Of a stretch of DNA of 64,000 bases, positions 1,984 through 47,034 are shown one piece after another (the stretch's first letter is position 1; each line of letters opens with the position of its first letter). Location of the stretch: positions 1-64,000 of IMG/VR virus record IMGVR_UViG_3300023179_000031. One strand, 5' to 3'. The stretch comes from a virus. The notes beneath the pieces were generated by a model. That model ran no database searches and was not told the DNA's origin. It saw nothing but the letters and a program-made list of their open reading frames with translations. A program made the translations under genes and the position numbers.

Positions 1984-2008
1984 ATAATCTTGGGAAGCTG
2001 GGACTCGC

Positions 2009-17364: not shown

Positions 17365-18141
17365 ATGAATACTCTCCTTAAATTTTTAGTTCTAATCTGT
17401 TTATTTTGTGGAAATAGTTTAGCTGGAACAATAGACCCAAATGTTCCAGACGAAAAATATATTGAATACGGCAAAAAACACCAGTGCGTGGTGGAGCTTG
17501 GTGGCATAGATAAAGGAAGCGGAAAGAAGTTTTTTGCTTCAGCCGTAATTATTAAGCCCAAAATTATACTAACAGCCGCCCATATTTTATCAGAAGCAGT
17601 AAATGAAAAATCGTTTATCTTACTGGATAAGGATAATAAAATTAATATTGTAGCGTCTATTTATCCAGCAGAGTACAATAAAGACACATTTGCCGTAAAA
17701 GATATAGCTATAGGATTTCTAGAAAAAGAAGCAATATTAGACTTTTATCCAGAATTGTATGGCAAAGATGATGAAGTTGGTAAAATTTGCAGTATTTCTG
17801 GAATGGGCATAACCGGAAACCATAAAAGCGGAACAACTAATCATGATGGTCATAAGCGGGCTGGCTCAAATATAGTTGATGAAACATTTAAAGAGTTGTT
17901 GATATGCTCTTTAAACAAAGGCACAAAAACAAGTTTAGAGTTTTTAATTGCCAATGGAGATAGCGGCGGTGGACTATTCATTGATAAAAAGTTAGCTGGC
18001 ATAAATTCATGCGTTATGGCTGATGATGGGTCTTTAAATTCTAATTACAATGATTGGTCTGGCCACACTAGGGTTAGTATTCATAAGCCTTGGATAGATG
18101 AAATTGTGACAATTTTAGAAAACTTTAAGTCAGAAAAATAA
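17365..18141 (+). CDS. Secreted trypsin-like (S1) serine protease
   Basis: Signal peptide; LTAAH, DIA and GDSGG catalytic triad motifs. Confidence 0.9.
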   Translation: MNTLLKFLVLICLFCGNSLAGTIDPNVPDEKYIEYGKKHQCVVELGGIDKGSGKKFFASAVIIKPKIILTAAHILSEAVNEKSFILLDKDNKINIVASIYPAEYNKDTFAVKDIAIGFLEKEAILDFYPELYGKDDEVGKICSISGMGITGNHKSGTTNHDGHKRAGSNIVDETFKELLICSLNKGTKTSLEFLIANGDSGGGLFIDKKLAGINSCVMADDGSLNSNYNDWSGHTRVSIHKPWIDEIVTILENFKSEK

Positions 18142-30096: not shown

Positions 30097-30552
30097 GTGA
30101 AGAAAAAACTGAAGATTGGCTGGCAAAAGTACGAAGATCTTATAGAAAAACAAATTTCTTCTCCGCTCATTCACACACTTATGGAAAACATAATGAGTCA
30201 AATGATTGACTCTATTCCTACAGATGAAGGTGTAGATGAAGATGATGAAATTAGTGAAAAGACTCATAACATGATGCCTCCACCAATGATGATCCCAATG
30301 TCGCAACAACTCATAGAAGACATATCAATGTTGTCTAACTTTGATTGTTGGATTGGACATACAAATTTTGATATTACACATAGAATCAAAGATAAGCTAA
30401 ATGAAATAGATGGTGTTGAGATATTGAAAATCTGTAGTCGTTACAGATTCTTTATAGGCATCGGGCAAATGTTTAATTTTGCAGATGTAAGAAAAAGTAT
30501 TGAAAATGAACTAATTACTAAAGGGGAAACTTATGATAGAGGAAAAGATTGA
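30097..30552 (+). CDS. Hypothetical protein
   Basis: AAGGAG before GTG30097; WIGHTNFDIT...GVE.L...SRYRF motif. Confidence 0.65.
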   Translation: MKKKLKIGWQKYEDLIEKQISSPLIHTLMENIMSQMIDSIPTDEGVDEDDEISEKTHNMMPPPMMIPMSQQLIEDISMLSNFDCWIGHTNFDITHRIKDKLNEIDGVEILKICSRYRFFIGIGQMFNFADVRKSIENELITKGETYDRGKD

Positions 30553-31012
30553 TGTTAAAATTGAAAAGGCTCTACAGGACAAAGATATTACTAATATCAT
30601 GCATAAGGCAGCTAGAAGATTCAGAAATCAGCTAGATAAAGATACTATTTATACATGCCAGCTTAATGCTTTGTGGAAGGCTTTTTTGAATTTTAAGCCA
30701 GAGAAGAATACGAAATTTACTACATATTTATTCAATGGGGTATTTATTGAGTGCCTAAAAGAGATTAAGTTTAAGAATAAGTCTAGTAAATGTAAGCATA
30801 AACTACATGATAATATGGCTCAAAATAATGAGCGATATTTGATGATAGACATACTAGATGAGATTACCAATGATGAAGATAGACAGTTGCTACTTGATAA
30901 AATTAGCAATATGACTATTCAAGAAATGGCAAATAAAAGGAATATTAGCCGTGAAACGGTAAGAAAGAAGCTTAAAAAATTGACCAAAAACTTCCAGCGA
31001 AAATTCCTTTAA
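30533..31012 (+). CDS. Compact sigma70-family factor (regions 2 and 4)
   Basis: ALWKA..NFKPEKNTKFTTY (region 2.3-like); MTIQEMANKRNISRETVRK (region 4 HTH). Confidence 0.8.
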   Translation: MIEEKIDVKIEKALQDKDITNIMHKAARRFRNQLDKDTIYTCQLNALWKAFLNFKPEKNTKFTTYLFNGVFIECLKEIKFKNKSSKCKHKLHDNMAQNNERYLMIDILDEITNDEDRQLLLDKISNMTIQEMANKRNISRETVRKKLKKLTKNFQRKFL

Positions 31013-31013
31013 A

Positions 31014-31025
31014 GTGTATAATTTA
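31014..31025 (+). promoter_or_regulatory. Candidate late promoter
   Basis: GTGTATAATTTA at the head of the structural module; no good -35 element. Confidence 0.45.
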
Positions 31026-31089
31026 TTAGGACTAGGACTTTTACAGGATGCGGACTCACCATTTCGTTTTAATTTAGGGAGAATATACA

Positions 31090-31725
31090 ATGGCAAGTAC
31101 AACTGTAAAAGGTTCTGGTAAGAAAAACAACGGTGGAACAATAGTCAATGCTGGCAACGTAGCCTCCAACAGTCCCGTTACTAGTGTAATCGGTTTAAAT
31201 GAGCTTCACGCCAATGCAGACTATGGTTCTAAGGTAGTAGCCAATGATGGCACAGGTGGCTCCACAAGCGATCCTTGGGGTGTTACTAAGGCTCTTTCAA
31301 GCGGTACTTTAGCTTATTTCCCCAGCGCAGCCGCTGGCGAAAGAAACTTTATTGTTAAGTGTGCTGGCGACAGTGCAGCCAAGATTAACAACATAGCAAC
31401 AGATATGCTCAACGTTCCCGGCGCTGAGTATGACGGTGTTAATCGCTCATCTATTCATAAGCTAGTTAAGACTCGTAGACTTGGTTCTGATGCCGATGCT
31501 ACATTTAATATCCTAGCTAGACCATCTACACAGGTTGTTCCCGGCAGAACAAAGGGTACTGGCGCTGGTAGTGCAAGCAATTTCGTTCAAATCGACGGTT
31601 CTACCGCCGCTGTGGACGGTGCAGCAACACTAACCAGATCAGTTCCCGGCGAGCTTACATACATGTTTGGAGCAATTAAGCCAGTTAATGTGGCTTACAA
31701 GGCCAAAGATAGCTACGAAGCTTAA
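31090..31725 (+). CDS. Putative virion structural protein
   Basis: G/A/S/T-rich composition; GGGAG RBS; followed by a terminator. Confidence 0.55.
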   Translation: MASTTVKGSGKKNNGGTIVNAGNVASNSPVTSVIGLNELHANADYGSKVVANDGTGGSTSDPWGVTKALSSGTLAYFPSAAAGERNFIVKCAGDSAAKINNIATDMLNVPGAEYDGVNRSSIHKLVKTRRLGSDADATFNILARPSTQVVPGRTKGTGAGSASNFVQIDGSTAAVDGAATLTRSVPGELTYMFGAIKPVNVAYKAKDSYEA

Positions 31726-31750
31726 TTTGTTTCTTTATCAGCACTTATTG

Positions 31751-31783
31751 GGGATAGACGCTCTTTTTGGGCGTCTATCTTCC
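31751..31783 (+). terminator. Hairpin terminator
   Basis: GATAGACGCTC / GGGCGTCTATC. Confidence 0.55.
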
Positions 31784-31803
31784 AGTACCACAAAGGGTAA
31801 AAA

Positions 31804-32406
31804 ATGCTAGATCACTTGCTCAAAGTAGATCCAGAATTGTTAACATTTCTTGTTAGTATCTTTGGCGCTGTGGGAACTTTTTTAAGTTTGGTTTGGGTTA
31901 GACTAATCAAACCAGTTATTAAAGTAGTAAATACTCATGAGCAAGTAGTCCAATCTATGGAAGTAATTCGTAAAGAATTAACTACCAATGGTGGAAATAG
32001 CATAAAAGACGCAATAATTGATTTGCGTACTACTTGTCATAGGATGGAAACAAGGCAAAAAGTTATAGAACAACGAACAAAAGCATCTCTACATTATAGC
32101 CAAGCCGCCCTATTTGAAACTGACAATGAGGGGCGTTTAGTTTGGAGTAATGTTAATTTTTGTGAATTTATGAAAGATATCTCCTCTAATTTAGAGGGTT
32201 ATGATTGGTTGAATTGCATAGACGAAGAAGACAGAGAAGACCTTTTACAAGAATTCAAATCTTGCCTACATCTTAATCGTAAATTCGTCAGAATAACCAA
32301 AATGCAGAATGGTATGGTAATAAGGATGACGGGATATCCATATAGGATAAATGAAGAAAAACAAGATGGGTTTTTAGTTAGCGTTTCAGAACAAAAAGAG
32401 GTATAA
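31804..32406 (+). CDS. Membrane protein: TM, coiled coil, C-terminal PAS domain
   Basis: TM at about aa 12-35; ELTTNGGNSIKD; PAS pattern LFETDNEGRLVWSN..F...LEGYDWLNCIDEEDRE. Confidence 0.8.
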   Translation: MLDHLLKVDPELLTFLVSIFGAVGTFLSLVWVRLIKPVIKVVNTHEQVVQSMEVIRKELTTNGGNSIKDAIIDLRTTCHRMETRQKVIEQRTKASLHYSQAALFETDNEGRLVWSNVNFCEFMKDISSNLEGYDWLNCIDEEDREDLLQEFKSCLHLNRKFVRITKMQNGMVIRMTGYPYRINEEKQDGFLVSVSEQKEV

Positions 32407-32408
32407 CT

Positions 32409-32624
32409 ATGTCAGCCAAATATTCTTTAGATAGAAAAGATGCTCTTGGTTTAGTAAAGAATGCAGTTTTAGTCGGTTTAGCCGCTGTTTTAACCTATGT
32501 TGGTGAACATTTAAGTTCACTAGACTTGGGTGCAAATGGCGTACTATTAGTACCTGTGGTAACAATTGTTATCGACAGTGTTGTTAAATGGGCTAAAGGC
32601 AATGTAAAAGAGGAAGTAAAGTAA
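32409..32624 (+). CDS. Holin-like small membrane protein
   Basis: 71 aa, two hydrophobic segments, charged C-terminus. Confidence 0.55.
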   Translation: MSAKYSLDRKDALGLVKNAVLVGLAAVLTYVGEHLSSLDLGANGVLLVPVVTIVIDSVVKWAKGNVKEEVK

Positions 32625-33541
32625 TGTTTAAAACACCAAATGAGCTATTAAAAGCTTATAGAGATGGATTTAATGGCTCTTGGTGCGATCCAGAGGATGT
32701 GGCAAAACTCTTAGGGGAATTGCCACATCCATTGTTTGGAGCCGCAGCATATGGGCTATTTGGTACTGGCGAAGGCAAAATTGCTCTTCCATTCAAAAAT
32801 CTACTAAAATTCGATCCAACATTTGGACCTTCAGAAAGACAAGTTCAGGGAGACTGTGTTTCCCATGCAACACGTAATAGCGTAGACGTTACACGTAGTT
32901 GCGAAATAATAGGTGGTCAGCGAGAAGATTTCGTAGCCCGTGGAGCTACTGAGGCTATTTATGGCTCTCGCGGACACGGAGGTGAAGGTATGTCCTGTTC
33001 TGGTGCGGCGAGGTTCGTTCACCAAACTGGCGGTATTCTTCTTCGTAAAAAATATGATAAGTATGACTTGTCAGCATATAGTGCTATAGGTGGATCATGG
33101 GGCAGAAGTGGAGTTCCAGATGATCTAGTCAAAGAAGCTGTTAAACATCAAGTTAAAACAATTAGTCTAATTAATACCGTAGCCCAAGCTAGAGATGCTT
33201 TAGCTAATGGTTACTCTATTAGCGTATGTAGTAATGTTGGATTTAGTTCTCGTAGAGATAAATATGGTATAGCAAAAAGAAGTGGCTCTTGGGGTCACGC
33301 GATGGCTTGGATAGGAATGGATGATTCTCATGAAATATATAATGAAACATTATTTTTAGTCCAAAATTCGTGGGGTGTATGGAATGGCGGCGAAAAACGA
33401 CTTGATCAACCAGATGGAAGTTTTTGGATTCGACAAAGCGATGCCGAAGATATGCTATCACAAAATGGCTCTTGGGTATTTAGTGATGTAGATGGATTCC
33501 CACCACGCAAGGTTGATTGGACCATTGACGAGGTATTTTAA
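32624..33541 (+). CDS. Papain-like (C1) cysteine peptidase
   Basis: QVQGDCVSH (Gln/Cys), WGHAM (His), VQNSWG (Asn); no signal peptide. Confidence 0.85.
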   Translation: MFKTPNELLKAYRDGFNGSWCDPEDVAKLLGELPHPLFGAAAYGLFGTGEGKIALPFKNLLKFDPTFGPSERQVQGDCVSHATRNSVDVTRSCEIIGGQREDFVARGATEAIYGSRGHGGEGMSCSGAARFVHQTGGILLRKKYDKYDLSAYSAIGGSWGRSGVPDDLVKEAVKHQVKTISLINTVAQARDALANGYSISVCSNVGFSSRRDKYGIAKRSGSWGHAMAWIGMDDSHEIYNETLFLVQNSWGVWNGGEKRLDQPDGSFWIRQSDAEDMLSQNGSWVFSDVDGFPPRKVDWTIDEVF

Positions 33542-36500
33542 GTGGCATCACATTATCAAAATATGTTGTTAAGAAGAGGCGAGCTAACAGAACTAAACGC
33601 CTCTAATCCTATTCTGGCATCTGGTGAGCCAGCTTTCGCAGTAGACAGTAATACATTTAAAATTGGTAATGGTGTTGACTCTTGGCAGACTTTAGATAGG
33701 TTTGTAACAACTGGAGATATTAAAGCTACTATAGCTACTATCTCTATTCCAAGCATTGCTATAAATCAATCTCATACTATCGTTATTGATTTTGAAGGAG
33801 TAAATTTAGATGAAAAATATGCTATATTTGCATCTCCAGTATCATCTCTTCCAGACGGTTTAGTTGTTGCTTATTCTTTTGTAAATGATACAGACAAGGT
33901 GTCAATTAATATACGAAATACATCATTAGATTATATTGACGCTGGAAACGCTAATGATTCTGGAAACGCCCCATCGTCTCAATCAGTACCTAATATTGAT
34001 TTTTATGTTGTAGCATACCTAGTGCAATCTACAACGACAACAACTACAACGACAACAACTTTACCACCAGTATCAGATTCTGTATTTAGTTTTGGATACA
34101 ATGAATTTGGTCAACTTGGAGTAAATAATACAATCTCAAGAGCAGAGCCAGAACAAGTGGTTGGAAATCATACTTGGAAAACATTGTCTGCTGGTCATTA
34201 TCATAGTCTTGGTATTGATATAAATGATGATTTATATTCCTTTGGTTACAACTACTATGGTCAACTTGGACTTGGAAATTCTGGAGCTAGTACAAATAGA
34301 AAAGTTCCAACCAAAGTCTCAAGCAACTATATAGAAAATAATGTATATAGCTCTGGAGCAAAGTGGAATAAAGTTTCTGCTGGAGCTTACCACTCATTAG
34401 CAATAGATTCTGGAAATAAACTATTTGCTTTTGGGTCTAATGCTCATGGAAGTTTAGGACTTGGAGATTTATCGCCAAGAACAATTCCAACTATGGTTGG
34501 TACTAACGTTAATTATCTACCATTATCAACAGAAACTCCAGAAGAAATATCAATTATAAACAATGAGTATGTTTTTTCTGGAATTAAACAAGATTATGCT
34601 GGACAAGTAAGATATCTATTACCAAGTGGCCAATACATTATCAGCGGAGTACCAATTGAGTATCCAATCGCTGTATTAAACGCTGGTAAAACAAATCTTA
34701 TATCATATTCTGGTGAAAGTTTTGCTGGATCATCAATACTTGCTGGAACAACAGCAGATGGTATGTATAATTTCTATTATGGAAATATTTATGTTAATGT
34801 AAGTGGAAATTATGATAAGGTTAGCACTCATACTATATCTGACGGATATATGGGTGGAGAAAACATATTTTATTACGCTGATCCAGATATTGGTTGGCAA
34901 GATGTTTCCGCTGGAAACTATCACTCATTAGCTATTAAAAATGGTGAACTATATTCATTTGGACATAATACATTTGGTCAATTAGGCACCGGAGATAATG
35001 AGAATAAATATCTACCAACCAAAGTAGGAACAAAGACAAACTGGACAAAGGTTTATGCTGGTAATTATCACTCTTTAGCTATTGATAGCAGTGGAGCCTT
35101 GTGGTCTTTTGGTTCTAATAATCATGGACAATTAGGGCTTGGGGATAGTCTCAATAGAAACGTTCCCACAAAAGTAAGCGGCGTATGGCAAGCATTTGAA
35201 GATTTTAACTTCTCTAATTTATCTTCATCTAGCTCTGTGGGATTTGATGATGAGAAATTTGTCTTTAACTACTCAAATAATAAACAATATTCATACGAAG
35301 ATAGATATTTATTATCAAATGGCACGTATGTTATCAGTGGAGTTCCTAGCGGACTACCACTTGCTATTTTAAATGACGGAAAGCAGCAGCAAATTAGTTA
35401 TTCTGGCACAAATTATTATGGATCTAAAACGCTAACTGGCACAACTAACAACGGAACATACAATTTTTATTATGGCACATTAACAGTGCGTGTTAGTGGA
35501 GACTTTGAAAAAGTTAGCACACATACATATAATAGCGGATATATGGGTGGTGAAAACATATTCTACTATAATAGGCAGTTAAATTCTTGGTCAGATGCTT
35601 CTGCTGGTGTTGATTTTTCTATAGCTTTAGATCATAACAATAATCTATGGTCATTTGGTAAAAACGATCATGGCCAACTAGGTTTAAATGATGATACATC
35701 TCGTAATCTACCAGCTAAACTTCCGCTATCAAATTGGCAAAGCGTTGATGCTGGAGCAAACCACGTTCTAACTGTAAATTCAAATAAAGAGTTGTGGTCA
35801 TTTGGTGGTAATAATAATGGGCAATTGGGCCTTGGTGATCGCACAGATAGATATGAACCAACAAAAGTCAATAGTGAAATACGTTGGAGCAAACCAAAAG
35901 CTGGTGGTAATCATTCTTTAGTAACTGTATTTTCATATTATCCTTCAGCCCCAACAAATATTACAGTTAAAAATGGATCTGATGTTTCATCCGCCGGAAC
36001 AAAAGAGTTAGAAGTTTCTTGGACACTAACAACATCAGAAGAAGAAGGAATTACAAATTATATAGTTCAATATTCAACTGACGGTGGATCTCACTGGGTA
36101 ACTGTAACAAAACCAGTTTCTACAAATAAATATTTCACAGTAACCGGCCTAGAAAATGGCACAAATTATATTTTCAAAATTGCGGCAGTAAATTATTTTG
36201 GACAAGGCGCATTTAGTGTGAATAGCTCACCAAAAGCTCCTAGCGAAGTTGTTGATGCTGATTTTTGCAACGTTCTATTTCTATCACATCTAGATGGCAA
36301 TAATAATTCAGAAGTGTTTACAGATATATCTAAATATCACTGGACAGCAACAAAAGAAGGATCTGCTAAGATATCTACCAATGATAGTAAATTTGGTGGA
36401 TCTAGCGCACTATTTGATGGTATAGGTGGCTTAACGTTTGGTAGTGGTTCAGAATTTAACTTATCTGGTAATTTCACTATAGAATGCTTCTTCAGACCAG

Positions 36501-36949
36501 TATCTTACTCATACGCCAATCCACAAGCGTTATTACATGGTAATAAATTACTATCTACAAATACTGCTGAAAATGGTTGGGGAATTTACTCAGATCATGG
36601 CGTTATTAGCATACAACATAAAGTAAATGGCGCAACTGTAGAAATATTAAGATCTAATATAACTCTACCATTAAATACTTGGAGTCATATTGCTTGGGTT
36701 AGAAATGGTCTAACAAATTCGTTATATATTAATGGCACAAAGAGATCTGCCGACTCAATATCTGCCGGATCAGCACCTCAATATCATGATACATCACTAG
36801 ATATTGGGACTAGAATTAGTACTGGCAGTCTAGATCACAGAAATATCTATGGATATATAGATGAAGTTAGGGTAAGTAAACTAGCAAGATACTCATCAGC
36901 AAATTACACGGTGCCGAGTAGGTCATTTGGTGTAAATACTTGTGAATAA
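33542..36949 (+). CDS. Tail fiber/adhesin: Mtd-N-like, Thr linker, RCC1 repeats, FN3, LamG-like
   Basis: NPILASGEP...FKIGNG; repeated SFG.N..GQLG...SAG..HSL; FN3 pattern Y.VQYS...TGLENGTNY.F; W.HIA.VR...GYIDEVRVS. Confidence 0.85.
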   Translation: MASHYQNMLLRRGELTELNASNPILASGEPAFAVDSNTFKIGNGVDSWQTLDRFVTTGDIKATIATISIPSIAINQSHTIVIDFEGVNLDEKYAIFASPVSSLPDGLVVAYSFVNDTDKVSINIRNTSLDYIDAGNANDSGNAPSSQSVPNIDFYVVAYLVQSTTTTTTTTTTLPPVSDSVFSFGYNEFGQLGVNNTISRAEPEQVVGNHTWKTLSAGHYHSLGIDINDDLYSFGYNYYGQLGLGNSGASTNRKVPTKVSSNYIENNVYSSGAKWNKVSAGAYHSLAIDSGNKLFAFGSNAHGSLGLGDLSPRTIPTMVGTNVNYLPLSTETPEEISIINNEYVFSGIKQDYAGQVRYLLPSGQYIISGVPIEYPIAVLNAGKTNLISYSGESFAGSSILAGTTADGMYNFYYGNIYVNVSGNYDKVSTHTISDGYMGGENIFYYADPDIGWQDVSAGNYHSLAIKNGELYSFGHNTFGQLGTGDNENKYLPTKVGTKTNWTKVYAGNYHSLAIDSSGALWSFGSNNHGQLGLGDSLNRNVPTKVSGVWQAFEDFNFSNLSSSSSVGFDDEKFVFNYSNNKQYSYEDRYLLSNGTYVISGVPSGLPLAILNDGKQQQISYSGTNYYGSKTLTGTTNNGTYNFYYGTLTVRVSGDFEKVSTHTYNSGYMGGENIFYYNRQLNSWSDASAGVDFSIALDHNNNLWSFGKNDHGQLGLNDDTSRNLPAKLPLSNWQSVDAGANHVLTVNSNKELWSFGGNNNGQLGLGDRTDRYEPTKVNSEIRWSKPKAGGNHSLVTVFSYYPSAPTNITVKNGSDVSSAGTKELEVSWTLTTSEEEGITNYIVQYSTDGGSHWVTVTKPVSTNKYFTVTGLENGTNYIFKIAAVNYFGQGAFSVNSSPKAPSEVVDADFCNVLFLSHLDGNNNSEVFTDISKYHWTATKEGSAKISTNDSKFGGSSALFDGIGGLTFGSGSEFNLSGNFTIECFFRPVSYSYANPQALLHGNKLLSTNTAENGWGIYSDHGVISIQHKVNGATVEILRSNITLPLNTWSHIAWVRNGLTNSLYINGTKRSADSISAGSAPQYHDTSLDIGTRISTGSLDHRNIYGYIDEVRVSKLARYSSANYTVPSRSFGVNTCE

Positions 36950-36975
36950 TATCATCAGTCAAATTAGGAGTTTTT

Positions 36976-37293
36976 ATGGGCGCTAAATATCCAAAAGTAC
37001 AGTTTAAAAAAGCAACAGAGGCTGAATTTATAGCCGCTGGCACAGTTTTAGCGTCTGGAGAACCCGGATGGGCAACAGATTCTAAAACTTTCAAAATTGG
37101 TGATGGTTCAACATCTTGGGCATCATTAAGTGGTATTGGAACATATGGTGGCACACCAGCTAATATGGTATTTAGCACAACAACGGGGATTACTGGAGCA
37201 TCTGGTATTCTAAACATTGTGCAAATAAGTCAAGCAAATTTTAATGCTCTTGGATCATACAGTCCCAATACAGCTTATTTGATTGTAGGTTAA
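36976..37293 (+). CDS. Short tail-fiber-associated protein with Mtd-N-like domain
   Basis: VLASGEPGWATDSKTFKIGDG, homologous to the N-terminus of the previous gene. Confidence 0.7.
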   Translation: MGAKYPKVQFKKATEAEFIAAGTVLASGEPGWATDSKTFKIGDGSTSWASLSGIGTYGGTPANMVFSTTTGITGASGILNIVQISQANFNALGSYSPNTAYLIVG

Positions 37294-37294
37294 C

Positions 37295-39937
37295 ATGCCA
37301 ATTAAATTTGGAAATGTTGGCATTAGCGGTATAGTATGTGCTAATGCTAGCTCAACTCTTTCTGACGTTTCTGGAGTAGCTATAACAAATAGCTCTGGTC
37401 AGCTTGTTGGGATAATAAGCCTACCAAATAACTTTACTAAGTTAAAGTCAGAAGGTTCTAGAATTGCTGGATTTACTATTACTGGTATTAGAGATGATTT
37501 ATTAATACCATTTAATAAAAGCACATCTGGCGAAGATCTTACATTCAATAGATCCGATGTAATTGATTTTATTTCTTACGAACCAGACGGATTAGTAATA
37601 GAGAGTAATGAATATTCTATTGATTTAGATTCTAATGAGCAAGTCAATTTCAAATTCTATTACCCATTCAATCAAAATAAGTTTGTTCCAGATAGAACGC
37701 TTATAGCTTCTAATATCTCTTCTTTGCTTTACTTTTTGCAACAACAAGATGCGGATGTTACAACTACAATACAAAATGCATTCAATTTTAACATAAATGA
37801 TTTTATTAGTCCTAGCGGAAATGATTCAACGGTAGCATTTAGTGAAATTACTCAAGCGGTTGAAGCTAGTAAAAGAATAGCAGTATTAGTACAAGCAACA
37901 ACGTCTGCTGTTCAAGGGGTAAGTGAAGCAGACTGTTTTCAAGCTTTAGCTATAAATGTTGCTACTGAAACAACGGCTAGGTCTGGAGTTCAAACATTTT
38001 TTGAAGAAAAATCATCTGGTATTATTCTTTCAACTATAGCCAATTCTTCTGGATTGACTAGCATTGCAGAATTACCAGAAGAAGTAGTTAATCAAACTAT
38101 CAATCTAGCAACTAATATTAATTATATTTCAAACAAGGATATAGAAAATTATGATAGAGGAAATCAAATTTCTTCTATTGTTCTAATAAAAAATATATTA
38201 CAACAGGGTATTGACTTAAGAGAAAGCAACGAAACGGTAGCAAATACTATAAGCCAAAAAGTTGAAACTATAGCCAGCGGAATACTTGGCGAAAATTATA
38301 TTCAAAGCTGTGATATAACAATTACTGGAAATATTCCAAACACTACTAGCACAACAACTTCGACTACTACAACAACCACATCTGCTCCACAAAATAATGA
38401 TATATATTGGGACAATGTTACGCTATTGATGCATGGCGATGATTCATTTAACGATTATAGTAAATATTCTCGCCCAATAAGCGCTTCGAATGCTACTATT
38501 ACATCTAATTCTAAGTTTGGAAACGGAGCAATGTTATTTTCTGCCAGCAACTCCGACGTTGGAACACAAAGCTGGACTCCATTTGGAACAGGTGATTTCA
38601 CAGTTGAGTGCTGGATCAATCCTAGCAATATGGGGGAAGCGTACATGTACATACTCCATGCTGGATACAATGAATCTAATACTTGTGGATTTAATGTGAC
38701 GGGAGGTTCTACTGGCAATTATCTGCGAGTAGATGGACCAATTTCTGGATATGGATTCGGACCAAACCACGGAATAACAACTAATCAATGGTATCATATA
38801 GCATATTGTCGCCAAAATGGGTATATGCGAGCATTTGTAAATGGTAATCCATTAGGTTCTGCGCCTATTTTTGTTCCAGATAATTTTGCAAATACAAAGT
38901 TGTATATAGGCAATGCTTTTAATGGAGAAAGTTATTTCCGTGGAATTATAGATGAATTACGAATAACTTCTGGTATATCTCGTTATGATTTGAATTCCAG
39001 CTTCACGCCACCTGAATATGCTTTTGGTTCTAGTACTACTAGTACAACAACGACTACTACCACCACCACAACTACCACCCTTCCACCTACAACAACCACC
39101 ACCACCACAACTACCACCCTTCCACCTACAACTACCACTACAACAACTACCACCACAACGACTACTACCACCACCACAACTACCACCCTTCCACCTACAA
39201 CTACCACTATAACAACTACCACCACAACGACTACTACCACCACCACAACTACCACCCTTCCACCTACAACTACCACTATAACAACAACCACAACTGCCAA
39301 TCCATTCACACCAAGAGCAGTTTTATTAACAAGTGGATCGTCATCATATGTTGTTCCCTCTGGAGCTACCACAATGAAAGCGTGGGCTATTGGCTCTGGA
39401 GGAAATAGTTATTTTTCAGGATCTCAACCATGTGGAGCAGGTGGATGTTCATATAAAACATGGTCTGTCTCAGGTGGTCAGTCTGTTACATATAGCGTAG
39501 GAAGTTACCCAAGCGCTGGTAACGGAAATCAATCTACAATAACTTTTGGGGGAGTAACAATTAGCGGAGGCGGTGGCGGTCAATTTGGTAGTGGTGGTTC
39601 TTATTCTGGCGGTGACGGGGGAGCTATTGGTGGAAGCGGTGTTGTTTTTGGTGATGGGTCAAGAGCAGGATTTGGCTCTGCTAGCGGCGCTGTTGGTGGA
39701 AACGGAATAAGAAAATCATGTGGACGTTTTGCTGCTACAGATGTTAGCGGATTAATTGCGGCAGTTTCATTAGCTGGAGGTAAAACTGTGGAAGATTGCG
39801 GAACAGTTGCGGCATTTGGGTCTGGTGGATATAATGATAAATATACAAATAAAAACGCAGGCATAGGCGGTGGCTTTGTCGGCGGATGGGCTAACTCTCA
39901 AGGAGGAGGCGGGGCTGTAATCCTGTATTTTACATGA
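37295..39937 (+). CDS. Adhesin-like protein: LamG-like domain, long poly-Thr stalk, Gly-rich C-terminal domain
   Basis: VTLLMHGD...DFTVECWI...GIIDELRIT; long Thr/Pro tract; C-terminal GGGGAVILYF. Confidence 0.8.
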   Translation: MPIKFGNVGISGIVCANASSTLSDVSGVAITNSSGQLVGIISLPNNFTKLKSEGSRIAGFTITGIRDDLLIPFNKSTSGEDLTFNRSDVIDFISYEPDGLVIESNEYSIDLDSNEQVNFKFYYPFNQNKFVPDRTLIASNISSLLYFLQQQDADVTTTIQNAFNFNINDFISPSGNDSTVAFSEITQAVEASKRIAVLVQATTSAVQGVSEADCFQALAINVATETTARSGVQTFFEEKSSGIILSTIANSSGLTSIAELPEEVVNQTINLATNINYISNKDIENYDRGNQISSIVLIKNILQQGIDLRESNETVANTISQKVETIASGILGENYIQSCDITITGNIPNTTSTTTSTTTTTTSAPQNNDIYWDNVTLLMHGDDSFNDYSKYSRPISASNATITSNSKFGNGAMLFSASNSDVGTQSWTPFGTGDFTVECWINPSNMGEAYMYILHAGYNESNTCGFNVTGGSTGNYLRVDGPISGYGFGPNHGITTNQWYHIAYCRQNGYMRAFVNGNPLGSAPIFVPDNFANTKLYIGNAFNGESYFRGIIDELRITSGISRYDLNSSFTPPEYAFGSSTTSTTTTTTTTTTTTLPPTTTTTTTTTTLPPTTTTTTTTTTTTTTTTTTTTLPPTTTTITTTTTTTTTTTTTTTLPPTTTTITTTTTANPFTPRAVLLTSGSSSYVVPSGATTMKAWAIGSGGNSYFSGSQPCGAGGCSYKTWSVSGGQSVTYSVGSYPSAGNGNQSTITFGGVTISGGGGGQFGSGGSYSGGDGGAIGGSGVVFGDGSRAGFGSASGAVGGNGIRKSCGRFAATDVSGLIAAVSLAGGKTVEDCGTVAAFGSGGYNDKYTNKNAGIGGGFVGGWANSQGGGGAVILYFT
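39031..39296 (+). repeat. Thr-coding tandem repeat (39-bp and 69-bp periods)
   Basis: CTACCACCCTTCCACCTACAAC at 39072, 39111, 39180 and 39249. Confidence 0.9.
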
Positions 39938-40434
39938 GCGAAATTTTACGATCACCAATAACAAATAATGCAGTTATGCTAATTCCCAGAAATGGTTCTC
40001 ATTCTTTGGCTATTTCAGCTATGAGAACTTTTTGGCCAGATATTGCAATTTCTGACGAATCACATCCCGCCACATTTTTTGGAGAAGAAGAGTGGTGGAA
40101 TGGCGCTAATCAAAATGTCGCCATCGTTGTTCGAAATCCTATAGAGAGATTTCGTTCAATGTGTGCGCATAGACCACAAAAAACATTAGAAGAACATCTT
40201 GATAACCCCGTATATGGACCACTTCCAAGCGGTAATTTTGTTAGATATTTTAGATTTGAAGATCAATTAAATGAAGCTGCGACATGGCTTGGTCTTCCTA
40301 CTCCACTTCCTAAAGAAGATGCCACGGATGAAGCGAATAAACCCATCCTTACAATAGAGCAAGAAATTAAAGTTCGTGAAATTTATGCAAATGATATTAA
40401 ACTTTGGGAAAGTCTTCAAATAAATAATCCATAA
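39934..40434 (+). CDS. Sulfotransferase-like protein
   Basis: LIPRNGSHSL (5'-PSB-like) and VVRNPIERFRS (3'-PB-like); C-terminal IYANDIKLW. Confidence 0.6.
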   Translation: MSEILRSPITNNAVMLIPRNGSHSLAISAMRTFWPDIAISDESHPATFFGEEEWWNGANQNVAIVVRNPIERFRSMCAHRPQKTLEEHLDNPVYGPLPSGNFVRYFRFEDQLNEAATWLGLPTPLPKEDATDEANKPILTIEQEIKVREIYANDIKLWESLQINNP

Positions 40435-40445
40435 AGGAAAATATA

Positions 40446-41558
<1,113 letters not shown>

Positions 41559-41632
41559 TCTGCGGAACCTAAATTAGAATTAGAAAAAATACACTTATAC
41601 ACTCACAATATATAATATCAAGAGACAATTAA

Positions 41633-44284
41633 ATGTCAACATCGGACGTAGTAATAAATATAGTTCCAAATAAATCAGACGTTGCTAACAACAATGTTGT
41701 AGTAAGTTGTCAAAAAACAGGTAATTATAAAATTGTAGATAATAGTAAAAATAAAAAAACAGAAACAGTAAGAGCTATAGAATTAGAATACACAGACCGG
41801 TTTAACAAGAAACGTCCAAGTTTTGGTATAATTCCAGTTGTGGCCGCGTTACCAACAACGACAACAACTACCACCACAACACCAACTACTACGACCACCC
41901 CTACACCCGGAGTATCAACAACTCTTGCTCCTACAACTACAACCACAACTACTACCACAACATTACCACCAAATCCATTTATATATGGTGTCGATATTAT
42001 TGGAGATATATGGGAAATCGATGTTGTAAACAAATCATTCCAACTTGTTTCAAAAACTGAAAAACCATATTTAGATTATAATGCGACATGTTATGATCAA
42101 GCTAGAGATCAAATATTTTATTTTTCTAATGAAGCTGGATATTGCATAAATGAAAATGGTATAAAAGATATAATATTTTCGCAACAAGACTTTTCAGGAG
42201 TAACCCCATCTTGTGCAGCTTATTACAATGATGCTATATGGTTCTTTGATCCAAATAATCCAATAATATTACAAAAATTCGCACTAAATTACGTAAAAAA
42301 CGCCCCAGTATTAGCATCACATGATGGTGCTACAGCAGACTATTTTATAAATTATTTTGCTGATAAAGGGCAACAAACTAGTATATCCATTGATGTAAAC
42401 ACCGGAATATTATATGGTATATCACGGGATGTATTTTTTTCTATCGATTTAAATGATCCAGATCCAGCAAGTACTTTCACAATCATAAAAGAATTTTTTA
42501 ATTTGGATGAGAATGGAGTACCAATAATAGCAATAACAAATTTTAATGGATCTATATATGAGTCTGGATTCATTGCGCCAGATGGAAACTGTTCGCCTCA
42601 ATTGGCTTTTAATACAAATTGCAGCATTTTGTATTTACACGTTTCAGAAACTGGAGCTTGGTTCACAATAGATAAGACAAATGGCGATATAACATCTTTA
42701 AATTTTAGCTCATCTTTTGTATTAACAGATGGAAATTATGGATTAGTAGACATATGTGGATCTAGAGTATCTTCAAGAATACCAAATCCACCAACAGAAC
42801 AAAATTGGGAAATATCAGCACAAACGACTGATTCTAACCAAGGTTTTGATATAGATTTTACATCTTCCATAGTTGGTGCATTATTAACAAATATTTTTAT
42901 AGATTGGGGAGATGGCAGAAAATGTATATACAAAAGTGGTGGTAGAAAATCAATCAATTATCGTAATGCTGGAACTTATAATATTAAAATTAGAGGAACT
43001 ATCAAAAATATTCAATTTGCCAATGCTGTTTCAAAAGTAAGATTAAAATCAGTAGGTGTCATACCTGCAAATTTTGGAATTACAACATTTTACAACATGT
43101 TTGCTGGATGTACTGGATTAACAAATATTCCAGAAGATATATTTATTAATTATCCAAATCTAACAACAAATGTTTTTGGAAATACTTTCTCTGGTTGTAC
43201 TGGGCTAACAAGTATACCAGAAAAATTATTCAAAAATCAAATTAGTCTTGGTAATGGAAGTTTTTATGCTACATTCATTAACTGCACAGGGTTAACTAGT
43301 ATACCGGATAATTTATTTAGATATAATACATCTGTTGGTGCAGGTTCTTTTAGTTATACTTTTTCTGGTTGCACATCACTTACAACTGTGCCAGCAGATA
43401 TTTTTAGATATAATACTAAAGTTGATATATCATCATTTATTGGTGTATTTGACAAAGTGACTTTATCAACAACATCATACAACAATCTACTAGCTTCACT
43501 AAATACATATCTAGGATCAAAAACTGGTATGCAATTTAATGCTGGCAATTCAAAGCATAGCGGAAATGGAACAACAGCCAGAACATCATTGATTTCTAAA
43601 GGCTGGAAAATGATAGATGGATCAGACATAGTTTTACATTTAGATTCTCAAAATTCTACAAGCTGGACAGGATCTGGAATTTGGTATGATATAAGTGGAT
43701 TCAAGCATGATGCTAAATTATACAATGGCGCATATTATGATAGCGGGTTTATCGTGTTCGATGGAAGTAATGATTATGCAGAAGTATTACATACAGCATC
43801 TTCTGCTCCATATATAAATGAATGTCTTGCATCCGATTTTGCTTTTGATATATGGGTATATATGTATGTACCGCAAGTGAGGCCATTTGGTAAAATAGTA
43901 TCTAAAGGTAGATTTGCATATCCCGGATTCAATGGTATTACCTTGCAAACAAATAATAATGTGGTAACATCATACATTAACTACAAAACATCTTCAGGCG
44001 TGTCGGTTGGAGGTCTAGGAGCTTCTCTAACTTCAAACGGGTGGACCAATATAGTTTATACAAGAACAAACGGTACTATGTCAGTGTATAAAAATGGACA
44101 ATTCCTTTCGTCCAAACAAGATTCTTATGATTTAAGATCGAATTATAACATAAGAATAGGAAGCAATTACGAGCCAGACAATCAATCTAAACAAAAAATA
44201 GCAGTATTAAAACAATACAGAAGAGGTCTTACATCTCAAGAAATAGCAGCAAGTTATGCTGAATACGCAAGCAGATTTGTGTAA
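41633..44284 (+). CDS. Adhesin-like protein: Thr linker, beta-propeller-like, PKD-like, BspA-type LRR, LamG-like
   Basis: IDWGDG; repeats F.GCTGLTSIP..LF; LHLDS...WYDISG...FDGSNDY. Confidence 0.8.
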   Translation: MSTSDVVINIVPNKSDVANNNVVVSCQKTGNYKIVDNSKNKKTETVRAIELEYTDRFNKKRPSFGIIPVVAALPTTTTTTTTTPTTTTTPTPGVSTTLAPTTTTTTTTTTLPPNPFIYGVDIIGDIWEIDVVNKSFQLVSKTEKPYLDYNATCYDQARDQIFYFSNEAGYCINENGIKDIIFSQQDFSGVTPSCAAYYNDAIWFFDPNNPIILQKFALNYVKNAPVLASHDGATADYFINYFADKGQQTSISIDVNTGILYGISRDVFFSIDLNDPDPASTFTIIKEFFNLDENGVPIIAITNFNGSIYESGFIAPDGNCSPQLAFNTNCSILYLHVSETGAWFTIDKTNGDITSLNFSSSFVLTDGNYGLVDICGSRVSSRIPNPPTEQNWEISAQTTDSNQGFDIDFTSSIVGALLTNIFIDWGDGRKCIYKSGGRKSINYRNAGTYNIKIRGTIKNIQFANAVSKVRLKSVGVIPANFGITTFYNMFAGCTGLTNIPEDIFINYPNLTTNVFGNTFSGCTGLTSIPEKLFKNQISLGNGSFYATFINCTGLTSIPDNLFRYNTSVGAGSFSYTFSGCTSLTTVPADIFRYNTKVDISSFIGVFDKVTLSTTSYNNLLASLNTYLGSKTGMQFNAGNSKHSGNGTTARTSLISKGWKMIDGSDIVLHLDSQNSTSWTGSGIWYDISGFKHDAKLYNGAYYDSGFIVFDGSNDYAEVLHTASSAPYINECLASDFAFDIWVYMYVPQVRPFGKIVSKGRFAYPGFNGITLQTNNNVVTSYINYKTSSGVSVGGLGASLTSNGWTNIVYTRTNGTMSVYKNGQFLSSKQDSYDLRSNYNIRIGSNYEPDNQSKQKIAVLKQYRRGLTSQEIAASYAEYASRFV

Positions 44285-44336
44285 TCTAGATTGCAGCTAT
44301 GGTTGTACACCGGTATAATAACTAAAGGAGTCAAAT

Positions 44337-44549
44337 ATGTCAACAGTAGATGTAGTTACAAACGTAGTCCCAAATAATGAGACAATTAAGAATGCCACGA
44401 CTGTAGTCAATTGCTATAGAACTGGCGCTTTTAATCTTTCAAACGCAACCTATCAAAAATCTATTACATATAACGCGATGGAATCAAAGTATACTAGTAG
44501 ATTTGATGATCTTGGATATTATCACTCAGTAGATGGCGGGAACCCATGA
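44337..44549 (+). CDS. Stand-alone homolog of the N-terminal domain of 41633-44284
   Basis: MSTVDVVTNVVPN...C..TG vs MSTSDVVINIVPN...C..TG; promoter TTGCAG-17-TATAAT (44291-44319). Confidence 0.75.
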   Translation: MSTVDVVTNVVPNNETIKNATTVVNCYRTGAFNLSNATYQKSITYNAMESKYTSRFDDLGYYHSVDGGNP

Positions 44550-44899
44550 AATATTTAGTTGGCTTAATATTGCTATTAGCTTTAGCTGGATGCTCTGCTA
44601 TTAACTGTTGCTATTTGCCAACAGCCGACATAACAGACATGTACGCACAATATATTGACGAATGGAAGAGTCAAGCAAAAGTAGCTTTTGAGGAAGCAGA
44701 AGCAAAAGTTTTTGTTGTCGCTCCAAAACCAGACGTTGTTGGTCCAGATGAAGATCCAGCAAAATGCGTTTGCAAAGGAACTGGGATAATTATTCATGGA
44801 GATGGTCACAAAACACCGTGTCCATTCCACAGCAAAAGCTCGTCAAGGATGAAAGCGATAGTAGAACAAAAAGGCTTGATAATTCAACAATCAAATTAG
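44546..44899 (+). CDS. Putative lipoprotein
   Basis: LAGC lipobox; CVCKGTG...GDGH...CPFH. Confidence 0.7.
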   Translation: MKYLVGLILLLALAGCSAINCCYLPTADITDMYAQYIDEWKSQAKVAFEEAEAKVFVVAPKPDVVGPDEDPAKCVCKGTGIIIHGDGHKTPCPFHSKSSSRMKAIVEQKGLIIQQSN

Positions 44900-44913
44900 T
44901 TACTGGAGAAAAG

Positions 44914-45201
44914 ATGGAAATTGAAACAATACTCAAGATAGTTGCACTATCTATTGGCGCTCTTATTATTTTATCTAACTTTGTAAGGTTTGATACTCTA
45001 CTTGCTAGACTACTTCCTAAAAAGAAAGTGCCTCAAGTAGTTGTTCAAGAAAATAAAGAAGATGAGAAATTTTTGCATATTATTAATCTATGGTATCAAC
45101 TAAAAGATAATTGTGATTCTTATGGTTTGCAATTAGCTGTTGAGAAATTAGACGAAGTGTTCCCATTGCTAAATAGCAGGAAAGACGAGAGTGCGAAATG
45201 A
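44914..45201 (+). CDS. Membrane protein
   Basis: N-terminal TM segment; GGAG RBS. Confidence 0.65.
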   Translation: MEIETILKIVALSIGALIILSNFVRFDTLLARLLPKKKVPQVVVQENKEDEKFLHIINLWYQLKDNCDSYGLQLAVEKLDEVFPLLNSRKDESAK

Positions 45202-45662
45202 CTAAAAACGCTATAGCCGTACTACTAATTATGTACGGCATTTTTGGTAATAGTTTATTCTATAATCCAGATAAGCCAACGCCACCATCTCCCTCTCCAT
45301 CTGTAGCTATTTTAAACATTGATAAGCCTACAGAAGCCGTTTTGGCTAAAGTACAAAAGTTTTCAGATCTTGTTGAAGATCCAACAGATAGAGCAAAGCT
45401 AGCAATATTTAACCATCAGTTTGCAACTAGAGTAGTTGCCTATGATACTAATTTACAGCAACTAAATGATGTTTACGTATTGGCTGGTAAAAATTTCTTC
45501 AAAGATTCTATTCATGGAAAATATAAAGCTTTACCAGACATGATCATTAGTCTAATTCAAGACACTACAACAGATGAAAATCACGTATTAACATCTGATG
45601 AGAAAAACAAAATAAGCGAAAATTTTATGGGAGTTGCTTGGGTGCTTATCCAGAAAAAGTGA
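45198..45662 (+). CDS. Membrane-anchored/secreted protein
   Basis: N-terminal hydrophobic segment and Pro-rich linker. Confidence 0.65.
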   Translation: MTKNAIAVLLIMYGIFGNSLFYNPDKPTPPSPSPSVAILNIDKPTEAVLAKVQKFSDLVEDPTDRAKLAIFNHQFATRVVAYDTNLQQLNDVYVLAGKNFFKDSIHGKYKALPDMIISLIQDTTTDENHVLTSDEKNKISENFMGVAWVLIQKK

Positions 45663-45664
45663 TT

Positions 45665-46390
45665 ATGACAAAAGTTGCATTAGTATGTATTGCAAAAAAT
45701 GAAGATAATTATATAGACGAGTGGATAAGTTACAATTTTAAGTTAGGCTTTGATGATATTCACGTTTATGCTAACGATTGGAATTTTAAATCTAGTAGCC
45801 CAAACGTTATAGTAAAACACATTCCGGGATCAGAGCAGCAAGTACCAGCTTACAATGATTTTGTACATTGTAACAATTCAAAGTATAATTGGGCTGCTTT
45901 TTTTGATGTAGATGAATTTTTAGTTCTTAAGAAACATAAAAACATTAAACATTTACTATCAGAGTATTCTGAATTTCCAGCTATAGGCATTAATTGGTAT
46001 TTTTTTGGAAGCAATGGTCACGATAAAATCAATGGCAATTATTCCGTTATTGACAGATTTACAAAAAGGCAAAGTATAGCAAATAAACATGTTAAAACAA
46101 TAGCAAGATTACCATGCTATCACACCGTTGGAATACATGATTTAATGAATTGCACTTGGGTTGACACAAATAAAAAACCTCACCGTGGGCCATTTAATGA
46201 AGATTTAGTAGTAGATGTTGCTCATATAAATCACTACTTTACAAAAAGCAAAGAAGAATTTATAACAAAGGTAAATCGGGGCAGGGCAGATACAACGCAA
46301 TACAAAAGACAACTATCAGAATATGACGAAAATAAAAACTGGAACGAAGTAGAAGATCTAATGGCATATAACTTTTATCACAATCTATAG
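45665..46390 (+). CDS. GT-A glycosyltransferase (GT2/GT92-like)
   Basis: CIAKNE..YI.EW, FFDVDEFL, INW..FG and INHYFTKS.EEF. Confidence 0.85.
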   Translation: MTKVALVCIAKNEDNYIDEWISYNFKLGFDDIHVYANDWNFKSSSPNVIVKHIPGSEQQVPAYNDFVHCNNSKYNWAAFFDVDEFLVLKKHKNIKHLLSEYSEFPAIGINWYFFGSNGHDKINGNYSVIDRFTKRQSIANKHVKTIARLPCYHTVGIHDLMNCTWVDTNKKPHRGPFNEDLVVDVAHINHYFTKSKEEFITKVNRGRADTTQYKRQLSEYDENKNWNEVEDLMAYNFYHNL

Positions 46391-46398
46391 GTGTTATT

Positions 46399-47034
46399 AT
46401 GATAGAGCTTACTCAAATAGAAACAATCTTAAATAGCATATTCAAGGGTGGCTTTGATCTTAATGGCACTAAAATTGCTTGTCAGTCACCGGCACGTATT
46501 ACAGTAAATGCTATAGACAATGATAATATAGCTATAGATTTTCATGACAATTTACCAAAAGCTACAGTCAAAAAATTAATAGCAATAACTTTACAGGTAG
46601 AGGGAGTTGTATTTAAAAAAGATTCTGGAACAATTAGAATCAAACATTTTCCAGATATTAATTTCGATTACGCAAAAGAAAGTAAAGCTATAGGAGCTTA
46701 TGAGATAGATAATGTTGATTTTCTAGAAATTGAATCAGAAATATCTAAAGAATACGATGACGAGAACAGAAAAAAATTGGCAGACAAGTGCTTGCAATAC
46801 GCCAAAGAGTGGGCTACAATAGCTAGTTATGGAGGCGTGTTGTTTAAGGATTGCGATTTTGACAAGCAGCAAGATCTAAAAGCACAATGCAGAAGCTTCG
46901 TCAAAGAAAGCGTCATGAAAGATGAAGAAGTGCGCTATGGATCAGTGATTCTTACATTTATTTTGATTCAAATCATATTGCCGATTATCATTAAATGGAT
47001 TGTTGAAAGGCTCTTCAAGAGACTTTTTAGTTGA
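46399..47034 (+). CDS. Hypothetical protein with C-terminal hydrophobic helix
   Basis: 211 aa; ends VILTFILIQIILPIIIKWIV. Confidence 0.6.
   Translation: MIELTQIETILNSIFKGGFDLNGTKIACQSPARITVNAIDNDNIAIDFHDNLPKATVKKLIAITLQVEGVVFKKDSGTIRIKHFPDINFDYAKESKAIGAYEIDNVDFLEIESEISKEYDDENRKKLADKCLQYAKEWATIASYGGVLFKDCDFDKQQDLKAQCRSFVKESVMKDEEVRYGSVILTFILIQIILPIIIKWIVERLFKRLFS

Follow-up and report, generated by a model that had tools for sequence, protein, structure and literature searches.

Phage endolysins are generally regarded as muralytic, with only a few folds among them. A group of three genes in the IMG/VR virus record IMGVR_UViG_3300023179_000031 raises the question of whether some tailed phages burst their host with an enzyme of a different kind. 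The stretch that we analyzed (the window) is the first 64 kb of one 122,466-bp contig, and it encodes in direct succession a membrane-anchored PAS protein (gene 1), a small protein with two transmembrane (TM) segments (gene 2), and a papain-like cysteine peptidase (gene 3). A sequence-only reading of the window had proposed that these genes form a sensor-controlled, protease-based lysis cassette. We found that a larger conserved envelope module extends beyond the trio, which makes up its front half. Our best reading is that the module is a holin-endolysin-type arrangement around a C1A protease with dedicated partners, with the PAS protein coupled to the holin gene. Judging from sequences and structure models, we lean slightly toward the trio and its partners being an envelope-disruption (lysis) module, because a signal-less enzyme lies behind a holin-like gene, the partners appear exported, fusions and holin swaps occur, and no muralytic gene was found. 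A papain-family protease probably replaces the usual cell-wall-cutting enzyme when the host bursts.

The three open reading frames (ORFs) and their junctions are as tightly coupled as the sequence-only reading described; like all the parts of the module and its surroundings given below (30533 to 47034), they lie on the plus strand. Gene 1 (200 amino acids [aa]; positions 31804..32406) is called from its ORF, fold, and conservation and is joined to gene 2 by the junction TAA-ct-ATG. Gene 2 (71 aa; 32409..32624), called from its ORF and charge topology, overlaps gene 3 in the sequence TAATG. Gene 3 (305 aa; 32624..33541), a xylellain-type C1A cysteine peptidase by fold and residues, is the candidate endolysin equivalent, and its TAA stop codon abuts the GTG start of the next gene, which encodes a 1135-aa fibre-like protein.

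Both the AlphaFold 2 (AF2) model and the conserved residues place gene 3 among the C1A peptidases. The model (predicted local distance difference test score [pLDDT], 94.9) has the papain fold with its L and R domains. Its best structural match is xylellain (3ois), with a Foldseek value of 6.8e-11 and a VIA-align Z score of 21.6 (root mean square deviation, 2.9 over 231 residues). All 50 listed Foldseek matches and all 50 listed VIA matches are C1 peptidases, with cathepsins and papains following xylellain. In 55 diverse relatives, Q73, C78, H225, and W250 are invariant and N248 (≥90%) and S249 are nearly so; the catalytic residues align to the QGxC, H, and NSWG of caricain. The family is divergent. 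Identity to xylellain is only 17 to 18%, with a profile match spanning residues 60 to 281. Gene 3 scores 18.7 bits against Pfam Peptidase_C1 (PF00112), under the cutoff of 20.7, so its C1A membership rests on fold and residues. PF00112 is matched by only 5 of the 55 relatives at an E value of ≤0.01, and Peptidase_C39_2 is matched by 3. Single-sequence searches of the PDB with genes 1 and 3 returned nothing significant. We conclude that gene 3 is, by fold and residues, a true but divergent C1A member. The fold and the 55-relative alignment thus uphold the earlier assignment of a C1 cysteine peptidase with an intact Gln/Cys/His/Asn set.

The N terminus of gene 3 is not hydrophobic and holds no signal peptide, again as first described. 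Zymogens align from about residue 4 of the model and mature papains from about residues 48 to 50, so the N terminus behaves as a short pro-region; these alignment ranges suggest a pro-region-like segment. Xylellain itself, from Xylella fastidiosa, shares with gene 3 the Gln/Cys/His/Asn set and a short N-terminal segment that superposes on pro-regions. It differs in that gene 3 is phage encoded and lies amid membrane and lipoprotein genes, to which it is fused in some phages.

Gene 3 belongs to a large family. A word-indexed search gave 1,911 relatives and an exhaustive search gave 1,477 representative clusters at an E value of ≤1e-3; the Atlas search returned only the peptidase's own viral clusters. 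Tailed phages (Myoviridae and Siphoviridae) have been described as having acquired xylellain-type C1A genes, with no function stated (PMC10380794), and we found no published function for these phage forms in the literature that we searched. Among look-alikes with the C1 fold in BFVD, some are named "Peptidoglycan binding-like," "N acetylmuramidase (fragment)," and "Copper amine oxidase"; from the names alone, this hints that the C1 fold is fused with cell-wall-binding domains in other phages.

Many peptidase homologs reach 440 to 1040 aa because they carry inteins, as judged from Intein_splicing, Hint, and LAGLIDADG matches (P0121, P0123, P0127, P0144, P0153, P0227, P0255, and L107:3307-5349). 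At one intein site the insertion immediately precedes the catalytic Cys78, so that this cysteine is the +1 residue; another site comes right after His225-Ala-Met. Three matched stretches in some intein-bearing homologs suggest two inteins in the same protein.

The small membrane protein that precedes the enzyme is a candidate holin on sequence grounds. We found two TM segments in gene 2 (residues ~13 to 31 and ~41 to 59), the number first reported for this 71-aa protein. Hydrophobicity and flank charges of +1, -2, and +2 predict an N-in/C-in topology with a charged C terminus. This architecture is kept in 18 relatives and has the size and topology of a class II-like holin. Some relatives carry near the peptidase an unrelated 58-aa two-TM protein, hol58, which in one locus (L065) weakly matches the PHROG holin families 4712 (5.2e-4) and 9987 (4e-3). 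Homology between gene 2 and hol58 was rejected by hhalign (probability, 1.8%).

We surveyed the peptidase in 79 viral loci, which were sampled by the peptidase itself. Upstream DNA is long enough in 72 of them, and 67 of these have a small two-TM gene beside the peptidase. This gene belongs to the gene-2 type in 47 loci (gene 1 is present in 39 and absent in 5, and in 2 the two-TM gene lies downstream of the lipoprotein gene described below; 1 of the 5 also has hol58) and to the hol58 type in 20. The order gene 1-gene 2-peptidase is kept in 39 of the 79 loci. The other orders are gene 2-peptidase without gene 1 (5/79), peptidase-lipoprotein-gene 2 (2/79), peptidase-lipoprotein-hol58 (20/79), and 95-aa TM protein-154-aa TM protein-peptidase-lipoprotein (5/79). 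One locus has another order, and in 7 the upstream DNA is too short to tell. The synteny expected of a cassette therefore holds in 39 loci and fails where the peptidase occurs without both gene 1 and gene 2 (20/79).

What the peptidase keeps as company more widely is a set of membrane and lipoprotein genes. In the window these begin 10.7 kb farther on with orf70 (70 aa; 44337..44549), which directly follows the peptidase in relatives and resembles the N terminus of an 883-aa fibre-like protein. Next comes a 117-aa lipoprotein (44546..44899) with an LLALAGC lipobox, a Pro-rich linker, and the Zn-ribbon-like motif C-x-C-x-G-x-G...HGDGH...CP-x-H; this is a conserved partner of the peptidase. It is followed by a conserved 95-aa single-TM protein (44914..45201), predicted to be N-out/C-in by charge, whose start is an internal ATG that we picked by eye. 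The last of the set is a conserved 154-aa protein (45198..45662) with an N-terminal TM segment, a Pro-rich linker, and a helical domain. Its flank charges are ambiguous, and its topology is taken from the fusions described below. Between the module and nrdA stands a conserved neighbor, a 211-aa protein with a C-terminal TM segment (46399..47034). None of these five proteins matches a Pfam or PHROG family. In 60 of the 79 loci, the flanking DNA retrieved with the peptidase contains a gene for a Cys-rich secreted protein or lipoprotein plus the 95-aa TM gene, usually with the 154-aa TM protein. This linkage includes the most distant class (56 to 57% identity), which has a different gene order. 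The lysis-cassette claim is strengthened by this linkage, by the fusions, and by the finding of no canonical endolysin; the trio is not a closed unit, since gene 1 and the two-TM gene stand without the peptidase nearby in 14 of 78 loci and the peptidase stands without genes 1 and 2 in the 20 loci mentioned above.

A three-TM glycine-zipper protein of 75 to 83 aa, which may be of the GlsB/YeaQ/YmgE type, adjoins the peptidase module in the most distant phage relatives (L075:5834-6082 and L078:5817-6068) and on a Limnocylindrus contig of a metagenome-assembled genome (MAG) (L096:4017-4244).

Fusions tie the peptidase to these partners. Among the 150 best peptidase representatives, 16 have an N-terminal hydrophobic segment, and 14 of these consist of one N-terminal TM segment, a module like the 154-aa protein, and then the peptidase. 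The fused N-terminal module aligns with the 154-aa family with an hhalign probability of 99.3% (E value, 1.9e-20; 145 columns). A Zn-ribbon motif, CxxCxGxG...GDGH...C, ends two of these 14 proteins (P0163 and P0191) as well as P0194, which lacks the N-terminal TM segment; none of the three has a further TM segment. No Pfam domain was found in the N-terminal 240 residues of the longer peptidase homologs. Since the stand-alone Zn-ribbon protein carries a signal or lipobox, the fused enzyme is probably extracytoplasmic. On the simplest topology, all three fused modules would lie beyond the cytoplasm, and the enzyme would do its work there. An N-terminal TM segment of their own, as in signal-anchored endolysins, is also present in two distant homologs (L096 and L099), both from MAG contigs. 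With signal-less and anchored forms both lying beside small membrane proteins, the peptidase family resembles endolysins.

We searched for a conventional endolysin at several levels. The sequence-only reading had noted no muramidase or amidase in the window. We likewise found no muralytic Pfam or PHROG family among the ORFs of the whole 122,466-bp contig or among 100 ORFs (≥70 aa) of G001, a complete relative of 161 kb, that are absent from the contig. A genome-wide family search, which is less sensitive, found 11 muralytic Pfam families in 0 of 5 relatives that are ≥94% complete. Controls were silent for PF00182 and PF05838, so the absences of these two carry no weight. Of these searches, the ORF-by-ORF Pfam scans are the stronger evidence. 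A muralytic identity for gene 3 was also rejected; it has no lysozyme, SLT, amidase, M15, M23, CHAP, or NlpC match, and its fold is C1A.

Several observations weigh against a lytic module. The genome search also found PF00112 in 0 of the 5 relatives, though all five encode the peptidase; it sees only typical family members and could miss a divergent endolysin. Pfam and PHROG placed neither gene 2 nor 17 relatives of it in a holin family, and none of the accessory proteins fell into a family of holins or spanins. Of 43 distinct lipoprotein homologs, only 9 pass a strict lipobox pattern, although by visual inspection a few others resemble one, so the lipoprotein does not look like a typical o-spanin, and the N-out/C-in prediction for the 95-aa protein is unlike an i-spanin. 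Stand-alone peptidase homologs (38 to 43% identity) lie among ordinary metabolic genes on a Balneolaceae chromosome and in Mucilaginibacter (L093:2890-3825 and L094:2848-3810), with no phage genes in view around them; by these chromosomal forms in Bacteroidota and Balneolota, the peptidase family is not tied to lysis. As for the enzyme itself, CHAP, NlpC/P60, Amidase_5, and the C39-like domain of mycobacteriophage LysA share its Cys-His catalysis and papain-like core and are used as endolysin domains, and models of mycobacteriophage LysA and of Gordonia endolysins are weak BFVD matches to gene 3 (E values, 6e-3 to 1e-2). However, the papain-like enzymes that cut peptidoglycan (NlpC/P60, CHAP, and amidases) form a separate superfamily cluster (PMC10318531), whereas the fold of gene 3 lies among cathepsins and papain. 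C1A enzymes are proteases by precedent.

The genomic setting adds to these doubts. In G001 the order is sigma, g211, gene 1, gene 2, peptidase, orf78, lipoprotein, TM protein, TM protein, 211-aa protein, and nrdA (g211 is a conserved gene described below). This places the module in the early/middle, replication and nucleotide arm and not in the late arm. The earlier statement that the trio opens the late module thus fits the present genome only; in G001 the trio is flanked by a sigma-like gene on one side and nrdA on the other, a long way from the structural arm. Taken with the protease precedent, this position favors an alternative in which the peptidase module acts on the envelope for remodelling, superinfection exclusion, or the processing of host or phage proteins in the periplasm, and the true endolysin goes unrecognized by the libraries. 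Many ORFs have no assignment, the genome search is insensitive to divergent members, and exclusion is another task of phage lipoproteins and of periplasmic proteins with a TM anchor, as in T5 Llp and T4 Imm and Sp. We nevertheless consider a non-lytic envelope role unlikely. The enzyme in the window has no export signal and lies directly behind a holin-like gene, hol58 has its weak holin matches, no muralytic domain turned up in the contig or in the contig-absent ORFs of G001, and the inteins at catalytic residues mark a strongly conserved gene.

The genes that separate the peptidase from its partners bear on a further possibility, that gene 3 is a virion or fibre maturation protease and for this reason precedes fibre genes. 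The 10.7-kb block that splits the module in the window (33542..44284) is fibre- or adhesin-like and encodes proteins of 1135, 105, 880, 166, 370, and 883 aa with Mtd_N, RCC1, FN3, LamG, and Phage_tail_C matches. The last of these, the 883-aa protein, spans 41633 to 44284, and its N-terminal domain is repeated in orf70. Gene 3 abuts the 1135-aa gene, and fibre-like cargo is often inserted beside the peptidase. In G001 and most loci, however, no fibre gene is adjacent. The fused and signal-anchored forms of the peptidase are membrane proteins, and head maturation in G001 is accounted for by a ClpP-like protease encoded next to the terminase. We regard a maturation role as very improbable. Anywhere from -15 to 3449 bp separate the peptidase gene from the lipoprotein gene in relatives (of the 60 loci showing both, 45 have <410 bp), which makes the spot a landing place for fibre cargo.

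As a side observation, this spot, which holds 0 to 3.4 kb of other cargo in relatives, resembles a hot spot for the swapping of receptor-binding genes.

We next consider gene 1. A hydrophobic segment at residues ~13 to 36, with a negative N flank and a positive C flank, predicts an N-out/C-in anchor. In the AF2 model, a single unbroken helix (residues 10 to 97) leads into a beta-beta-alpha-alpha-alpha-beta-beta-beta domain (102 to 196) with the helix-flanked, five-stranded antiparallel sheet of the PAS fold and block-mean pLDDT values of 76 to 94. The 50 Foldseek matches listed are all of the PAS/LOV type, one of them an integrative model (best E value, 5e-6). Gene 1 scores 13.5 bits against Pfam PAS_9, below the threshold of 27; PAS_9 is matched by 20 of 30 relatives (E value of ≤0.05; best, 8.4e-6), and several relatives are named "PAS domain S-box" proteins at source. 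The PAS domain has no output domain. The first description of gene 1 is thus sound as to its one TM segment and its C-terminal PAS domain without output; where it had a coiled coil, the model shows only a long helix. No cofactor could be inferred for the PAS domain from conserved residues, among which C154 is invariant and H97 is ≥90% conserved in the 30 relatives.

The long helix carries the motif ELTTNGGNSIKD, which is conserved in the 30 relatives. Within E58-L-T-T-N-G-G-N-S-I-K-D69, the residues E58, G63, G64, K68, and D69 are invariant. The sequence-only reading had placed proteins with an NGGxSxxD motif next to holins in actinobacteriophage lysis cassettes. We could not tie the motif to any known family, and that link finds its sole echo in a weak match of the motif region to phrog_15431 ("holin"; E value, 0.0022) in 4 of the 30 members. 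Two PHROG families of no known function, phrog_1009 and phrog_9869, are matched by 12 of the 30 members each. A search for shorter proteins with the first 100 residues of gene 1 gave no candidate. A match to Pfam 8xMP (E value, 0.017) was below threshold, and literature on 8xMP gave nothing relevant.

How closely gene 1 is bound to its neighbors was surveyed in 80 loci sampled by gene 1; since these are related and partly share contigs with the peptidase loci, they do not count as independent events. In all 80 loci, gene 1 is followed after 0 to 41 nt by a two-TM gene, of the gene-2 type in 79 and of the hol58 type in 1 (L155). Gene 1 and the two-TM gene are therefore the tightest unit. Of the 78 loci that extend far enough, 64 have the peptidase after this pair. 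The 14 loci in which the pair has no peptidase nearby speak against a fixed cassette. In the 4 of these that were examined, an open frame then runs to the locus end, and in L156 that frame begins NrdA-like, after a terminator-like stem with a T-run (read by eye). On 5 contigs that carry gene 1 and the two-TM gene with no adjacent peptidase (10 to 63% complete), we found no peptidase, no homolog of the 154-aa protein, and no PF00959, PF01510, or PF01464.

On this sequence evidence, it is plausible that the PAS protein is a holin regulator. A literature search for a PAS domain linked with a phage holin or antiholin turned up nothing relevant. A competing explanation comes from the genes upstream. 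In the window, gene 1 is preceded by a sigma-70-like factor of 159 aa (30533..31012; phrog_351; E value, 1.1e-7), which has weak Pfam Sigma70_r4, Sigma70_r2, and HTH matches and a homolog in relatives. The sigma-like gene is conserved upstream of g211 (31090..31725), a conserved 211-aa protein that always stands before gene 1 or its positional analog and that, by tblastn, occurs in 44 of the 79 peptidase loci. We found no match for g211 in Pfam, PHROG, PDB, or the Atlas. In three other classes of loci, single-pass TM proteins with a long helix and no PAS domain follow g211, and in the G002 class this protein stands apart from both holin and peptidase. The position of gene 1 may therefore be inherited from the g211 neighborhood, which counts against a tie to lysis. 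Gene 1 might then be a membrane sensor acting on the phage sigma factor or on g211, or its PAS domain might serve dimerization only. PAS domains often mediate protein contacts only, and 2 of the 30 gene 1 members match the PHROG "Srd anti-sigma factor" (0.019).

We take a role other than holin gating to be a reasonable possibility, if on present evidence the less probable one. The proteins that follow g211 elsewhere show no homology to gene 1 or to one another. A strong hairpin lies between g211 and gene 1 (31746..31787 in the window, called from folding energy). The spacer (31726 to 31803) has a minimum free energy of -28.3 kcal/mol (z, -5.7), and 0 of 200 shuffles were as stable. A stem-loop follows g211 in 9 of 9 loci (the window and L006, L007, L009, L027, L042, L058, L069, and L077; z, -3.3 to -6.2), with unrelated stem sequences and a T-run in some only. 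The stem-loop might act as a terminator or attenuator, or it might stabilize the transcript. The two-TM gene lies ≤41 nt after gene 1 in all 80 loci, even across one family swap, and in L156 the terminator-like stem closes the pair. These points favor holin regulation over a role in the g211 neighborhood.

A mechanism for the preferred lysis reading can be sketched. Its part in lysis, what the enzyme cuts, how the enzyme is exported, and any contact between gene 1 and gene 2 are all inferred. The peptidase would be made in the cytoplasm as a self-restrained xylellain-type C1A enzyme. Late in infection, gene 2, with its class II-like topology, would permeabilize the inner membrane and release it. 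In the periplasm the peptidase would work with the Zn-ribbon lipoprotein and the anchored 154-aa protein, cutting either the peptide bonds of the wall or the wall's protein tethers in place of a muralytic endolysin. Gene 1, a clade-specific accessory with a predicted cytoplasmic PAS domain, would be cotranscribed with the holin-like gene and most likely tunes holin timing. Doubtful, in our estimate, is the fullest version of this scheme, in which an abundant and large aquatic phage clade has replaced its endolysin with a zymogen-like C1A protease and periplasmic partners and in which, in one subclade, a PAS sensor gates the holin by redox, energy, or ligand state.

Known lysis systems offer partial parallels. 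As in the holin-endolysin-spanin cassettes of phages with Gram-negative hosts, such as lambda (S/R/Rz/Rz1) and phage 21 (pinholin and SAR endolysin), a small two-TM protein is encoded directly upstream of a signal-less hydrolase, the module includes a lipoprotein and TM-anchored proteins, and the enzyme occurs in signal-less and N-anchored forms. Unlike in those cassettes, the enzyme here has the C1A fold and is not a lysozyme, transglycosylase, amidase, M15, M23, CHAP, or NlpC enzyme. The partners match no holin or spanin family, the lipoprotein has a Zn-ribbon motif and often no lipobox, and in this genome 10.7 kb of fibre genes interrupt the module. The T4 antiholins RI (periplasmic) and RIII (cytoplasmic) are likewise separate gene products that set lysis time via the holin, as gene 1 could, and RIII is a precedent for a cytoplasmic lysis regulator. 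Gene 1 differs from them in being membrane anchored and PAS bearing, with no relation in sequence or fold. If the lysis reading is correct, phage lysis would gain a new class of enzyme, a C1A protease with its own partners in the periplasm, and a function would be assigned to the xylellain-type peptidases carried by tailed phages. Were the PAS protein coupled in function to a holin, it would be the first candidate for a lysis clock that senses a ligand or the redox state. The fusions map which module proteins should touch.

The trio belongs to an uncultured freshwater or aquatic lineage of phages of about 150 to 170 kb with long tape-measure proteins. The contig (36% G+C) is that of a large tailed phage. 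Its genes include those for rIIA/rIIB, thymidylate synthase, class Ia ribonucleotide reductase, PhoH, a DnaB-type helicase, a primase, a split DnaE-type polymerase, and many glycosyltransferases; its tape-measure protein has 2401 aa and its largest proteins have up to 3875 aa. Its DNA is present in lake and freshwater metagenomes. Genomes of relatives reach 145 to 174 kb, and 2 with terminal repeats are rated complete. In a collection of 50,697 phage records, we found no close isolate. Against these records, tblastn with genes 1 and 3 gave no match, and blastn with window positions 31000 to 37000 gave only a 58-nt RCC1 match.

The sigma-70-type, DnaB, DnaG, and DnaE genes of the contig fit a bacterial host. 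The sequence-only reading had suggested a protein-rich envelope and a planctomycete-type host; we found no support for either, and the lipobox partner and the fusion topology fit an ordinary diderm envelope. The MAG labels on distant peptidase homologs are not host evidence.

Three features elsewhere on the contig were noted in passing. Window positions 1 to 2000 have 48% G+C, versus 31 to 42% in the remaining window, and encode a 399-aa DUF932/phrog_1362 protein that is conserved in G001. The early region encodes a 258-aa trypsin-family serine protease (17365 to 18141; Pfam Trypsin, 1.4e-13), also conserved in G001. Finally, two separate ORFs (534 and 536 aa; L001:88-4664, corresponding to contig positions 63987 to 68563) make up the DnaE-type DNA polymerase, and between them lie an HNH endonuclease gene and an exonuclease-subunit-like gene.

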